Position numbers and translations under genes: made by a program
Part shown: positions 19,877-24,833 of the stretch, piece after piece
Layout: every line of letters begins with the position of its first letter
Position numbering within the stretch: the stretch's first letter is position 1
DNA from: a virus
Direction: 5' to 3' (one strand)
Virus genome (UHGV): UHGV-0236124
DNA: 33,147 bases
Notes under the pieces: generated by a model
Database searches by the model: none
What the model was told of the DNA's origin: nothing
What the model saw: the letters and a program-made list of their open reading frames with translations, nothing else

Positions 19877-20085
19877 ATCAGAATGATATTGAAGCCATGA
19901 TTCAGCGTTATACGGAAGCTGAAATGGCGGTGCTGGACGGAAAATCCGTCACTTTTAATGGTCAGCAGATGACCATGGAAAACTTATCTGAGATCCGGCA
20001 GGGACGGCAGGAGTGGGAGCGCCGCCTTGCGGCTCTGATTTCACGACGACGGGGGCATCCCGGGTACCGGCTGGCGAGGTTCTGA
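19873..20085 (+). CDS. head-tail joining / head completion protein (gpW-like)
   Basis: about 70 aa; GGAGG 6 nt upstream of ATG 19873; C-terminus ...RRRGHPGYRLARF resembles lambda W C-terminus. Confidence 0.65.
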   Translation: MNQNDIEAMIQRYTEAEMAVLDGKSVTFNGQQMTMENLSEIRQGRQEWERRLAALISRRRGHPGYRLARF

Positions 20086-21560
20086 TGGCAATTCTTGATG
20101 ATGTGATTGGCGTTTTTTCACCAGGATGGAAAGCGGCAAGGCTGCGTTCCCGTGCGGTGATTCAGGCTTATGAGGCCGTAAAAACGACGCGGACACACAA
20201 AGCCCGACGGGAGAACCGAACTGCCGACCAGTTAAGCCAGTACGGGGCCGTGTCGTTACGTGAGCAGGCCCGTTACCTTGATAACAACCACGATCTGGTC
20301 ATTGGTGTATTTGACAAGCTGGAAGAACGGGTGGTGGGGAAAAACGGGATTATTGTCGAGCCACATCCGGTATTACGCAATGGGGCCATTGCCCGTGATC
20401 TGGCAGCGGAGATACGCACCCGATGGAGTGAATGGTCTGTCAGTCCGGAAGTCACCGGGCAGTTTACCCGTCCGATGCTGGAACGTCTGATGCTGCGTAC
20501 CTGGCTGCGCGATGGTGAGGTGTTTGCCCAGATGGTTTCCGGGCGCATAAACAGCCTGACGCCTTCTGCCGGTGTTCATTTCTGGCTGGAGGCGCTCGAG
20601 CCGGACTTTATTCCCATGACCAGTGATGAGAGCAACAGGCTGAATCAGGGCGTGTTTGTTGATGACTGGGGGCGTCCCGAAAAATATCTGGTGTATAAAA
20701 GCCGTCCCGTATCCGGGCGGCAGATGGAAACCAAAGAAGTGGATGCAGAGCGAATGCTGCATCTTAAATTTGTTCGCCGTCTGCACCAGATGCGCGGGAC
20801 GTCTTTATTGTCCGGTGTGCTGATCCGCCTCAGCGCCCTGAAAGAGTATGAAGATTCTGAGCTGACTGCAGCAAGGGTCGCCGCTGCTCTGGGGATGTAC
20901 ATCCGCAAAGGCGACGGACAGAGCTATGAAACGGATGGTAATGACAGCAAGGAGAATGAACGCGAGCTTACCATTCAGCCAGGCATTATTTACGACGATC
21001 TGAAACCCGGCGAAGAAATCGGAATGGTGAAGTCGGATCGCCCAAATCCTAACCTTGAAACTTTTCGTAATGCTCAGTTGCGTGCCGTGGCGGCGGGCAG
21101 TCGTCTGAGTTTTTCCAGTACAGCGCGCAACTATAACGGCACTTACAGCGCCCAGCGTCAGGAGCTGGTTGAATCCACTGATGGCTACCTGATCCTGCAG
21201 GACTGGTTTATTGGTGCCGTCACCCGCCCGATGTATCGTGCCTGGCTGAAACAGGCTGTGGCATCCGGTGTTATCAGGCTACCCCGCGATCTTGACCGTT
21301 CTTCACTGTATACCGCGGTGTATTCCGGACCGGTGATGCCGTGGATTGACCCTGTTAAGGAGGCTGAGGCCTGGAAAATCCAGATTCGTGGTGGAGCGGC
21401 GACAGAATCAGACTGGGTACGTGCAGGTGGTCGTAATCCGGATGATGTCAAACGTCGGCGCAAGGCCGAAATTGATGAAAACCGCAAGCTGGACCTGGTA
21501 TTTGATACCGATCCGGCCAGTGATAAAGGAGGCAGCAGTGCCGCAACGAAACGACAGTAG
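20085..21560 (+). CDS. portal protein (lambda gpB-like)
   Basis: ATG overlapping the W stop (TGATG); 491 aa; position and size fit a portal. Confidence 0.8.
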   Translation: MAILDDVIGVFSPGWKAARLRSRAVIQAYEAVKTTRTHKARRENRTADQLSQYGAVSLREQARYLDNNHDLVIGVFDKLEERVVGKNGIIVEPHPVLRNGAIARDLAAEIRTRWSEWSVSPEVTGQFTRPMLERLMLRTWLRDGEVFAQMVSGRINSLTPSAGVHFWLEALEPDFIPMTSDESNRLNQGVFVDDWGRPEKYLVYKSRPVSGRQMETKEVDAERMLHLKFVRRLHQMRGTSLLSGVLIRLSALKEYEDSELTAARVAAALGMYIRKGDGQSYETDGNDSKENERELTIQPGIIYDDLKPGEEIGMVKSDRPNPNLETFRNAQLRAVAAGSRLSFSSTARNYNGTYSAQRQELVESTDGYLILQDWFIGAVTRPMYRAWLKQAVASGVIRLPRDLDRSSLYTAVYSGPVMPWIDPVKEAEAWKIQIRGGAATESDWVRAGGRNPDDVKRRRKAEIDENRKLDLVFDTDPASDKGGSSAATKRQ

Positions 21561-23565
21561 CCGCAGTACACCGACGACCAGTCCGAAGAATAATTCCTGG
21601 TTCAGGATGCAGGCTGGTCACCAGAGTGACGCGGATATTTATATTTATGACGAGATTGGTTTCTGGGGTGTTACAGCGAAGCAGTTTATCAGTGATCTGA
21701 ATGCACTGGGCGATATCACCCACATTAATCTCCATATCAATTCACCGGGTGGCGATGTCTTTGAAGGCATCGCCATTTTTAATGCGCTGAAAACACATGG
21801 TGCGTCCATTACCGTTTATGTCGACGGTGTGGCGGCATCAATGGCGTCGGTCATTGCGATGGTGGGAAACCCGGTCATTATGCCGGAAAACACCTTCATG
21901 ATGATTCATAAACCATTTGGCTTTACGGGCGGTGATGCGGAGGACATGCGCACCTATGCCGACCTGCTCGATAAAGTTGAGGCGGTTCTGTTACCCGCTT
22001 ATGCACAGAAAACCGGGAAAACCACCGATGAAATTGCTGCCATGCTGGCGGATGAGACCTGGATGTCCGGTGCCGAATGTCTGGCACAGGGATTTGCTGA
22101 TCAGGTGACACCAGCCGTTAAGGCAATGGCATGTATTCAGTCAAAACGTACAGAGGAATTTAAAAAGATGCCGGAATCCATTCGAAACATGATTACTCCG
22201 CCACGCAACAGTGCTCCACGCGTACAGGATGATGAACCTGCAGCCTCCCGGACGCCAGTGCAGGCAGCAGCACCCGTGGTGGATGAAAACAGTATCCGTG
22301 CGCAGGTACTGGCAGAGCAAAAAGCGCGTGTAAACGGTATTAATGATCTGTTTGCCATGTTTGGCGGGCGTTATCAGATGCTGCAGGCCCAGTGTCTTGC
22401 CGATCCTGAATGTTCGCTGGAGCAGGCCCGTGAAAAGCTGTTGAACGAGATGGGGCGCGAGTCCACGCCATCCAATAAAAATACCCCGGCTCATATTTAT
22501 GCCGGTAACGGTAATTTTGTGGGGGACGGGATCCGCCAGGCGCTGATGGCGCGTGCCGGATTTGAAAAAAACGAACGTGATAATGTCTACAACGGGATGA
22601 CCCTGCGTGAATATGCCCGTATGTCACTAACTGAACGGGGTATTGGGGTTTCCGGTTATAACCCGATGCAGATGGTCGGTGCGGCGTTCACACACAGTAC
22701 GTCTGACTTCGGTAATATTCTGCTGGATGTTGCGAACAAAGCCATTCTGCAGGGCTGGGAAGATGCCCCTGAAACCTATGAACAGTGGACGCGGAAAGGT
22801 CAGTTGTCTGATTTTAAAATTGCCCATCGTGTGGGTATGGGGGGCTTCAGTGCTCTGCGTCAGGTGCGTGAAGGGGCGGAATATAAATACGTCACCACCG
22901 GAGATAAACAGGCCACTATTGCACTGGCGACCTATGGCGAGCTGTTCAGTATCACCCGTCAGGCCATTATCAATGATGATCTGAATATGCTGACCGATGT
23001 CCCGATGAAACTGGGCCGTGCGGCGAAATCCACTATTGCCGATCTGGTTTATGCCATTCTGACGTCTAACCCGAAAATCTCCACAGATAATGTAAGTCTG
23101 TTCGATAAAGCGAAACATGCAAACGTACTGGAGAGCGCTGCAATGGACGTGGCATCGCTGGATAAAGCCCGCCAGTTGATGCGCGTTCAGAAAGAGGGGG
23201 AGCGTCATCTGAATATTCGTCCTGCGTTCGTACTGGTACCGACGGCGATGGAGTCTGTTGCTAACCAGGTCATTCGCTCCTCAAGTGTCAAGGGGGCTGA
23301 CATTAACGCCGGTATTATTAACCCGGTGAAAGATTTTGCGACCGTTATTGCAGAGCCTCGTCTTGATGATAACAGCCAGACCACCTTCTACCTGGCTGCG
23401 TCAAAAGGCTCCGATACGATTGAAGTGGCTTATCTCAACGGTGTGGATACGCCATATATTGATCAGATGGAGGGCTTCAGTGTGGATGGCGTGACAACGA
23501 AAGTGCGTATTGACGCCGGTGTCGCGCCAGTTGATCACCGCGGTCTGGTGAAATGTACGGCGTAA
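21538..23565 (+). CDS. prohead protease (ClpP/S49-like) fused to major capsid protein
   Basis: GTG at 21538 preceded by AAGGAGG; N-terminal ClpP-like region (IYIYDEIGFWG...INSPGGDVFEGIAIFNAL...MASVIAM) and a C-terminal capsid-like domain in one 675-aa ORF; alternative start ATG 21607. Confidence 0.75.
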   Translation: MPQRNDSSRSTPTTSPKNNSWFRMQAGHQSDADIYIYDEIGFWGVTAKQFISDLNALGDITHINLHINSPGGDVFEGIAIFNALKTHGASITVYVDGVAASMASVIAMVGNPVIMPENTFMMIHKPFGFTGGDAEDMRTYADLLDKVEAVLLPAYAQKTGKTTDEIAAMLADETWMSGAECLAQGFADQVTPAVKAMACIQSKRTEEFKKMPESIRNMITPPRNSAPRVQDDEPAASRTPVQAAAPVVDENSIRAQVLAEQKARVNGINDLFAMFGGRYQMLQAQCLADPECSLEQAREKLLNEMGRESTPSNKNTPAHIYAGNGNFVGDGIRQALMARAGFEKNERDNVYNGMTLREYARMSLTERGIGVSGYNPMQMVGAAFTHSTSDFGNILLDVANKAILQGWEDAPETYEQWTRKGQLSDFKIAHRVGMGGFSALRQVREGAEYKYVTTGDKQATIALATYGELFSITRQAIINDDLNMLTDVPMKLGRAAKSTIADLVYAILTSNPKISTDNVSLFDKAKHANVLESAAMDVASLDKARQLMRVQKEGERHLNIRPAFVLVPTAMESVANQVIRSSSVKGADINAGIINPVKDFATVIAEPRLDDNSQTTFYLAASKGSDTIEVAYLNGVDTPYIDQMEGFSVDGVTTKVRIDAGVAPVDHRGLVKCTA

Positions 23566-23587
23566 ACGTCGCAGACAACAACTCTGA

Positions 23588-23608
23588 TGGCCCGTAAGGG
23601 CTTTTTTT
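23588..23608 (+). terminator. weak terminator candidate after the capsid gene
   Basis: gcccgtaagggc followed by ttttttt. Confidence 0.35.
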
Positions 23609-23651
23609 GTACCTGAAATCAGCCCCTGAACGGGGCTGTGCGGAGACAGTT

Positions 23652-23975
23652 ATGGCAAAGAATTTTGTAGAAGAAGGAAAAACGGTGGCGATTGTTGCCA
23701 GTGCAGCCATCAGCAGCGGAGATCTGGTGCAGGTGGGCGATGTTTTTGCGGTGGCGCTGACCGATATTCCACAGGGTGAAACAGGCGACGGCATGACCGA
23801 AGGTGTGTTTATGCTGCCTAAGCTGAAAACGGATGACATGAAAACGGGTAAGAAGGTTTATCTGAAGTCCGGAAAAGTTCAGCTGACTAACAGCGGCTCT
23901 GATCCGCTGGTCGGGGTTGTCTGGGCAGATGCCGGAACCAGTGCAGAAGAAGTGCCGGTAAAACTCAATGTCTGA
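23652..23975 (+). CDS. head decoration / capsid-associated small protein (DUF2190-like)
   Basis: 107 aa immediately after the capsid gene; GGAG upstream of the ATG. Confidence 0.55.
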   Translation: MAKNFVEEGKTVAIVASAAISSGDLVQVGDVFAVALTDIPQGETGDGMTEGVFMLPKLKTDDMKTGKKVYLKSGKVQLTNSGSDPLVGVVWADAGTSAEEVPVKLNV

Positions 23976-24243
23976 TCCCTTTTCCCGGCTGGCAGCGCGT
24001 ATGGATGCTATCACGGTTAGAAAGATGGGAAAGACAGCCTCGATTAATGATGTCGATATGACTGTGATCCCGGGAGAAACACTGGCAGAGCTGAATGCTC
24101 TGTCCGGACCTGCGGTCTCTCTGGTGGTGTTTTCTTCGGGATACCGCCCACGGCGCGGGGATCGCGTTGTTTATGACGGACAACAATGGACGGTCACACG
24201 GCATGAACGTTTTAACGGTAAGCCAATGATCTTTATTGAGTAA
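23968..24243 (+). CDS. head-tail joining protein (lambda FII-like)
   Basis: 91 aa; ...SLVVFSSGYRPRRGDRVVYDGQQWTV resembles the lambda FII pattern; overlaps the previous stop. Confidence 0.55.
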   Translation: MSDPFSRLAARMDAITVRKMGKTASINDVDMTVIPGETLAELNALSGPAVSLVVFSSGYRPRRGDRVVYDGQQWTVTRHERFNGKPMIFIE

Positions 24244-24254
24244 AGAGGTGTGGG

Positions 24255-24833
24255 ATGAAGGGGCTTGAGAATGCCATCCGTAATCTGAACAGCCTTGATA
24301 CCCGTATGGTGCCACAGGCCAGCGCATGGGCGATAAACCGTGTGGCACAGAAAGCGGTCTCGGTCGCCACCCGGCAGGTTGCCGGGAATACCGTTGCGGG
24401 AGATAACCAGGTGAAAGGGATCCCCCTGAAACTGGTACGTCAGCGTGTCCGGGTGTTTAAAGCCAGTCCGTCAGGAAAAATGACGGCCAGGATCCGCGTT
24501 AACCGGGGCAATCTGCCCGCTATTAAGCTGGGGACAGCCCGGGTCAGACTGGCCCGGCGTGGTGGAAAACTGCAGTACCGTGGCAGTGTGCTGAAGGTGG
24601 GTAAATATCTTTTCCGGGATGCGTTTATTCAGCAACTGGCGAATGGTCGCTGGCATGTGATGCGGCGTATTGATGGCAAAAATCGTTACCCCATTGATGT
24701 GGTGAAAGTCCCGCTGTCCGGACCGCTGACACAGGCATTTGAAGATGCCCGCGACCGCATTATTGCTGCGGAAATGCCGAAACAGCTGGGGTATGCACTG
24801 AAACAACAACTGAGGTTATGGCTGACCCGATGA
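24255..24833 (+). CDS. minor tail protein Z-like
   Basis: 192 aa, same length as lambda Z (recalled); N-terminus MKGLENAIRNL... Confidence 0.75.
   Translation: MKGLENAIRNLNSLDTRMVPQASAWAINRVAQKAVSVATRQVAGNTVAGDNQVKGIPLKLVRQRVRVFKASPSGKMTARIRVNRGNLPAIKLGTARVRLARRGGKLQYRGSVLKVGKYLFRDAFIQQLANGRWHVMRRIDGKNRYPIDVVKVPLSGPLTQAFEDARDRIIAAEMPKQLGYALKQQLRLWLTR

Follow-up and report, generated by a model that had tools for sequence, protein, structure and literature searches.

A very probable Gifsy-2-type fusion of ClpP-like prohead protease, putative scaffold and major capsid protein in virus genome UHGV-0236124

The head genes of virus genome UHGV-0236124 raise a simple question: is the single long open reading frame (ORF) between its portal gene and a downstream gene of the DUF2190 family one intact gene for a protease, a scaffold and a capsid protein, and if so, is the arrangement new? 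The DNA analysed, 33,147 nucleotides (nt) long and called here the window, had been read before from its letters alone. This sequence-only reading had proposed that a ClpP/S49-like protease domain, a linker with a probable scaffold-like role and a capsid-like domain share one frame, with no separate scaffold or capsid gene. We conclude with high confidence that the gene, at 21538..23565 on the + strand, is an intact member of the known Gifsy-2-type fusion family, situated in the late operon of a lambdoid Escherichia coli phage or prophage of the mEp460/cdtI group. Nothing in the sequence contradicts this assignment. The fusion of protease, scaffold and capsid protein is itself already known, curated and very common, and thus not new.

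The assignment is carried by matches that cover the protein from end to end. On the NCBIfam hidden Markov model (HMM) NF045540, 'ClpP-like prohead protease/major capsid protein fusion protein', whose cutoff is 475 bits, the window protein reaches 985 bits (E-value (E) 2e-296) and aligns in a single stretch, from model position 2 to 651 of 652; the match to PHROG 133 also spans the full length. The model of type 2 fusions, NF045541 (scaf_prot_MCP2), stays at 402 bits, under its cutoff of 525, and its match is limited to the linker and capsid regions (model positions 176-630 of 634, E 4.5e-120). These regions are homologous in the two families, whereas the N-terminal protease of NF045541 is not ClpP-like. 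At the nucleotide level, all 2028 bases of the gene are 100% identical to RefSeq E. coli genes that bear the fusion-protein name and have the same boundaries (WP_086714422.1), and the deposited phages phi458, mEp460, cdtI, Tritos, Ayreon and HannyBb carry it at 98-99% identity; for several of the deposited phages a laboratory E. coli host is named. The copies in mEp460, cdtI, phi458, Tritos and Ayreon and the gene of WP_086714422.1 are the same gene, with 98.3-100% identity over the 2028 bases and essentially no differences. Among 5426 complete E. coli genomes, 2125 carry a match, and in 2017 of these the match covers at least 80% of the gene. The product is a continuous single polypeptide in 21 homologues at 76-99% identity and also in 79 representatives below about 60%.

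The open frame runs from 21346 to 23565 (+) and counts 739 codons from its first TTG, a length that in DNA of 52% G+C is not due to chance. The sequence-only reading had put the single frame at 675-739 amino acids (aa), and the two ends of this range correspond to the TTG and to the GTG at 21538. We support the latter as the true start, giving a coding sequence of 675 aa that ends with TAA at 23563-23565. A Shine-Dalgarno sequence, AAGGAGG (21526..21532, +), lies 5 nt upstream of this GTG, and the predicted pairing with the anti-Shine-Dalgarno sequence, -11.6 kcal/mol, is the best among the in-frame starts of the gene. The GTG is favored over the ATG at 21607 (Met24) because of this strong ribosome site, because the residues just before Met24, 17-23 (K..SWFR), do not vary among 22 homologues, and because Gifsy-2 has Ile instead of Met at position 24. 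The RefSeq/PGAP coordinates of the 100%-identical E. coli copy match 21538-23565 exactly.

The hidden frameshift or stop that would have separated protease from capsid was not found: NF045540 aligns in one stretch, and the frame is unbroken in all homologues compared. Moreover, the fusion gene alone occupies the interval from the portal gene to the DUF2190 gene, so that the claim of no separate scaffold or capsid gene holds. Antisense and off-frame ORFs inside the fusion gene (193, 128, 120, 117 and 113 aa) gave no Pfam match, and we rejected them as genes, treating them as mechanical ORFs. A scan of 21000-24300 for sigma-70 promoters found none, which is consistent with transcription from a late promoter far upstream.

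The N-terminal part of the protein, about residues 31-195 (21628..22122, +), is assigned to the ClpP-like (MEROPS S14-type) serine proteases. It is matched by Pfam CLP_protease (E 4.9e-36), by the NF045542 model of the 'head maturation protease, ClpP-related' (216 bits, E 3e-64; cutoff 120 bits), and by solved ClpP chains (E 1e-15). The S49 (SppA) model reached only a sub-threshold 22 bits against a cutoff of 155; the ClpP half of the proposed 'ClpP/S49-like' label is thus well founded, and the S49 half finds nothing beyond this sub-threshold match. Alignment to ClpP 1y7o places Ser101 (codon 21838-21840, +) in a G-x-A-A-S-M motif and His124 (codon 21907-21909, +) in an M-I-H-x-P motif; the Ser and His of these motifs are catalytic residues of ClpP. 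An acidic pair, Asp172/Glu173 (22051-22056, +), follows, of which Glu173 aligns with the Asp of ClpP. The domain is apparently an active protease of the S14/ClpP-like type.

The C-terminal part, about residues 321-675 (22498..23562, +), is the major capsid protein domain. Residues 377-672 (22666-23553, +) match Pfam Phage_capsid_4 (PF25209) at E 2e-54, and the domain also matches the Mu-like gpT family PF10124 (E 4e-8). A search with the domain as a single sequence found the major capsid protein of Pseudomonas phage JBD30, a 'Mu GpT domain-containing protein' (8rkc/8rkx), at E 3e-4. A profile of the domain built from 21 sequences strengthened the match to 8rkc (E 8e-12) and also reached another solved major capsid protein, 9jod (E 1.6e-9). 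The fold of the JBD30 protein is the canonical HK97 one (PMC11445458). These matches support homology of the C-terminal domain to Mu-gpT-type capsid proteins of the HK97 fold. The capsid-like character proposed by the sequence-only reading is therefore borne out by the PF25209, PF10124 and profile matches, and the domain HMM searches that it had suggested as a check likewise support the ClpP-like protease and the fusion. Two results weigh against our reading of the locus. The AlphaFold2 models are of low confidence, with a mean predicted local distance difference test score (pLDDT) of 35.5 for the full protein and 32.0 for residues 301-675, and the protein that we take for a capsid cement protein (see below) has no significant match to any solved structure, lambda gpD included. 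The low AlphaFold confidence is attributable to the input alignments, which held only relatives at least 75% identical. Since neither model was usable, the HK97 fold rests on profile homology to JBD30, which here takes the place of the structure prediction proposed as a check; the direct prediction was too low in confidence (pLDDT 32-35) to add to it.

The two domains are joined by a linker of ~125 residues (196-320; 22123..22497, +), a putative scaffold region of delta-domain-like type. Column conservation drops here to 0.2-0.38, with many gaps, versus 0.4-0.8 in the flanking domains. Within the linker, a hypervariable stretch rich in Ala, Pro and Val (residues 223-248; 22204-22281, +) shows in-frame indels even among close relatives and is followed by a better conserved helical stretch (residues 249-304; 22282-22449, +), whose helices 250-273, 276-288 and 294-304 are the sole part of the full-length AlphaFold model with pLDDT of 60-82. 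The variation in linker length among close homologues consists of in-frame indels only, and we found no family model covering the linker by itself. A scaffold role for the linker is plausible, by analogy. Some homologues (P0072, P0085 and P0086) are 82-86% identical to the window protein overall, yet 90-97% over residues 301-675. This higher identity over the capsid half suggests recombination breakpoints near the variable linker, by which protease and capsid halves may have been swapped among related prophages.

The linker is also where a different account of the gene's products would apply. In the enterobacterial/Pseudomonas branch of the family, a nested internal start at Met211 (ATG 22168), comparable to the nesting of Nu3 in lambda C, could give a protease-less scaffold-capsid protein of 465 aa besides the full-length product, in which case most shell subunits would be without protease and the protease-to-capsid ratio would become tunable instead of fixed at 1:1. 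Such an arrangement has precedent, since lambda and P2 have nested or shared protease and scaffold genes (PMC8508860). Moreover, Met211 is invariant in 22 close homologues despite the variable linker around it, a Shine-Dalgarno-like GAGGAA (22153-22158, +) lies 9 nt upstream, and Met211-Pro212 with GAGGAA, GAGGAG or CAGGAG at this distance is kept in E. coli phages, in Gifsy-2 and in Pseudomonas phage MD8. However, the pairing at this site is modest (-6.0 kcal/mol, when the 5th percentile of all gene positions is -8.5), the conservation of Glu-Glu-Phe codons also accounts for the GAGGAA, and of 80 diverse family members only four have the Met-Pro motif. The region could be a nested start or merely a conserved peptide motif, SKR.EEF..MP. 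We consider a second product from Met211 unlikely, and prefer the reading of a single full-length polyprotein.

Two further alternatives question this polyprotein itself. In one, the single frame would be an artefact, two genes having been joined by a sequencing error or by a recent frameshift or stop loss in a decaying prophage. Errors of this kind do occur: databases hold 1159-aa 'proteins' of portal, protease and capsid that arose from independent 1-nt frameshifts at differing places, and some short capsid-only homologues are remnants of deleted prophages. For the window gene, however, the continuous frame recurs, identical or near-identical, in the 2017 complete E. coli genomes and in the deposited phages, it is equally continuous in Gifsy-2, in MD8 and in the 79 representatives of below about 60% identity, the curated model covers it end to end in one stretch, and the linker indels never leave the frame. 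An artefactual fusion is thus effectively refuted, and we leave it next to no probability. In the other alternative, the ClpP-like domain would be a degenerate, non-catalytic assembly domain, with processing either done by a host protease or absent. The third triad residue offers some ground for this, as it has no clean match: it is Glu173 that aligns with the ClpP Asp, and Asp172 is adjacent. But Ser101 and His124 are invariant in all 80 diverse fusion proteins, 74 of the 80 have an acidic residue (Glu or Asp) at position 173, the S-x-G-G motif of the oxyanion region (Ser69, Gly71, Gly72) is kept in 78-79 of them, and the score against NF045542 lies above its cutoff. We therefore regard an inactive domain as very improbable, and retain an intact polyprotein with an apparently active protease.

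How widespread is the one-gene design? When representative clusters were searched exhaustively by HMMER with the capsid domain as query, 10640 of them matched at E<=1e-3, and 2696 still did so at E<=1e-30. Most of the best 148 matches are 620-800 aa long with the capsid domain at the C-terminus, and 82 of these 148 have an N-terminal domain homologous to the ClpP-like protease of the window protein. Ten long relatives without a ClpP-like domain were sampled: five carry Peptidase_S78, the HK97-type protease (among them P0142, P0150, P0184 and P0201), two carry Peptidase_S49, the lambda C-type protease (P0190, P0240), two gave no Pfam match to a protease, and the last (P0121) is a chimera of terminase and capsid. 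One-gene organization is thus typical of the Phage_capsid_4 clade, and the protease module has been swapped among lineages (S14, S78, S49) with the design kept, because the same capsid clade is found fused to three types of protease that are distantly related or unrelated to each other.

Among the homologues collected, two classes of entries could be taken for natural variants of this design. The 1159-aa entries (P0003, P0006, P0008-P0013) are made possible by the 64 codons of open +1 frame upstream of 21538, in the region of the portal/fusion overlap (21340-21560). We considered programmed frameshifting between portal and protease as their source and rejected it: the frame switch lies at differing positions among the entries, as independent 1-nt errors or mutations would place it. 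We also rejected capsid-only homologues of 350-470 aa as natural unfused relatives; no ancestral state without fusion can be deduced from them. One of them, a 411-aa copy (locus L004, 5001-6236), stands beside integrase and excisionase genes and is the remnant of a deleted prophage. Another, of 362 aa (locus L005, 4353-5441, on a 5.6-kb metagenome contig of the Joint Genome Institute (JGI)), follows small genes that include a helix-turn-helix regulator; no terminase, portal or protease was found on the 5.6 kb of this contig, and the locus could be a satellite-like element. One further short capsid-only homologue is on a 1.5-kb contig.

From homology with Gifsy-2, analogy with HK97 and lambda, and the general course of HK97-like head assembly, we propose how the polyprotein might work. 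About 415 copies would co-assemble on the portal through their capsid domains to form a T=7 procapsid. The linker would serve as a scaffold from within, in the manner of the HK97 delta domain or of lambda Nu3, and would keep the protease inside the shell. Assembly would crowd the proteases, which may then cut the polyprotein where the linker meets the capsid domain and degrade the 300-380 residues on the N-terminal side, the fragments leaving the shell. The capsid protein that remains would be of ~35-40 kDa; for Gifsy-2, proteolytic maturation in trimer-decorated T=7 heads is reported in the literature. Packaging of DNA by the gpA-type terminase would drive expansion of the shell, and trimers of the DUF2190 cement protein would bind at three-fold sites, as gpD does in lambda.

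The genes around the fusion are in keeping with a head module. It lies directly between a lambda-family portal gene (20085..21560, +; Pfam Phage_portal_2, E 2e-82), with which it overlaps by 23 nt, and a 107-aa gene of the DUF2190/Phage_cement_2 family (23652..23975, +; PF09956, E 1.4e-20; 'DUF2190 family protein' in RefSeq), from which it is separated by 86 nt; the same context is found in Gifsy-2 and MD8. The DUF2190 protein is 61% identical to Gifsy-2 STM1034, and the MD8 annotation has a head decoration protein at the syntenic place after gp5. It is likely to be a capsid decoration (cement) protein; because the search of solved structures gave no match, a gpD-like role is suggested by family name, synteny and literature.

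Two hairpins are predicted between the fusion and cement genes (both +). The terminator scan found a terminator-like stem-loop, GGCCC-GTAA-GGGCT followed by seven T (23589-23609), and a second stem-loop of 7 bp, CAGCCCC-TGAAC-GGGGCTG (23620-23638), stands just before the ribosome site of the cement gene. The RNA fold of the hairpin region (23589-23638) has an energy of -30.2 kcal/mol (z -2.4). Both hairpins are present in Gifsy-2, where the second differs in sequence yet still pairs. They may set the ratio of capsid to cement protein expression or stabilize the mRNA.

Elsewhere in the window, two other segments deserve mention. In its left end, of low G+C (37-42%), a gene for a SocA/Panacea-domain protein (1125-1697, +; Pfam E 1.8e-18) is overlapped by a 139-aa ORF (1694-2113, +) for which we found no Pfam match, and the pair (1125-2113) looks like a toxin-antitoxin system of Panacea type. 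Between the Q antiterminator (12041-12835) and the lysis genes, in the region 12041-16415, a gene for a DNA methylase of the N6/N4 type (14119-15171; Pfam E 2e-42) and an ORF of 141 aa that matches no family (13116-13541, in DNA of 40.6% G+C) occupy the position of a moron. This segment is absent from the prophage of E. coli SCEC020023, whose late region is otherwise 99.6% identical and which carries an SDH-family Clp-fold proteinase at the site.

As a discovery the fusion gene, a textbook variant of head assembly, has little weight, given that a curated family model, a RefSeq product name and a cryo-electron microscopy study of the 69%-identical Gifsy-2 homologue already exist. The practical value of the assignment is in annotation. 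GenBank phage records label the gene inconsistently, as 'Nu3', 'head-tail preconnector protease C', 'protease/scaffold protein', 'major head protein', 'major capsid protein', 'head maturation protease', 'Clp protease' or 'C', and automated capsid-protein finders can miss the fusion. For phage biology, the interest of the design is that one gene would deliver enzyme, scaffold and shell at a fixed 1:1:1 stoichiometry, and that capsid proteins of one clade are found in fusion with proteases of three different families.

The 'tripartite' gene type was first studied in the Salmonella phage Gifsy-2. Its STM1034.3n product is 69% identical to the window protein over 668 aa and has the ClpP-like protease, the central region and the capsid domain in one ORF. 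The gene order is also the same from the small terminase subunit to the tape measure (small and large terminase subunits, W-like, portal, fusion, DUF2190, 91-aa protein, Z, U, V, G, T, H), with 40-73% identity between the virion-module proteins (64% for the portal). The Gifsy-2 protein differs in being 696 aa long as annotated, with another N-terminal extension, a longer linker and an insertion at the junction of linker and capsid, and in its Salmonella host. Effantin and colleagues reportedly distinguished three parts in the product of the Gifsy-2 gene in 2010, namely a ClpP-like protease, the capsid protein and, in the center, a domain of ~200 residues that might serve as scaffold, and are said to have modelled the T=7 capsids with HK97 gp5 and lambda gpD. 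As cited in PMC8538268 and PMC8814770, the 'tripartite capsid gene' of Gifsy-2 was studied by Effantin et al. (2010, Virology 402:355-365); PMC8814770 lists the capsid as T=7, and PMC8538268 describes a trimeric extra protein at every three-fold axis. In PMC8814770, moreover, retrieval of an HK97-fold capsid protein failed for some phages, Gifsy-2 included.

More distant is gp5 of Pseudomonas phage MD8, which is 56.5% identical over 97% of the query and has the same three-part organization in a single gene, followed by a decoration gene. It is 693 aa long, comes from a different host genus and has a diverged linker. The authors of the MD8 study propose that a single gene, that of gp5, encodes protease, scaffold and capsid protein (PMC8508860).

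HK97 gp4/gp5 follows the same logic in that the capsid polypeptide includes its own scaffold. The HK97 protease, however, has a gene of its own and belongs to a different family (S78), there is no decoration protein, and the shell is a covalent chainmail. No sequence similarity of the window protein to HK97 gp4/gp5 was detected in this analysis. The delta domain of HK97 serves as scaffold within the capsid polypeptide and is removed by the phage protease after assembly (PMC8508860).

With lambda, the window shares a terminase and a portal of the lambda family upstream, a small putative capsid-stabilizing protein, and lambda-like tail genes downstream. Identity to the tail proteins of lambda is 50-55% for Z, U and V, 33-38% for G and T and 25% for H; the large terminase and the portal are only 24% and 22% identical (the latter to lambda B), and are still lambda-family by Pfam. 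The two differ in the head. In lambda the order is C/Nu3, D, E, with a separate capsid protein E, and the protease C, a ClpP-clan (S49) enzyme, shares its gene with the scaffold Nu3; the decoration gene precedes the capsid gene in lambda and follows it in the window. BLASTP of the window proteins gave no match to lambda C, Nu3, D, E, FI or FII, and a lambda-type head module with separate genes for S49 protease/scaffold, gpD and gpE was not found. As far as sequence comparison goes, the break from lambda is sharpest in the block of protease, scaffold, decoration, capsid and connector genes. The head-tail mosaicism relative to lambda that the sequence-only reading had pointed to is thus confirmed by the similarity of Z, U and V together with the missing matches to C, Nu3, D and E. 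Since the same head is combined with lambda-like tails in Gifsy-2, cdtI and mEp460, this mosaic is old and shared by these phages rather than specific to the window.

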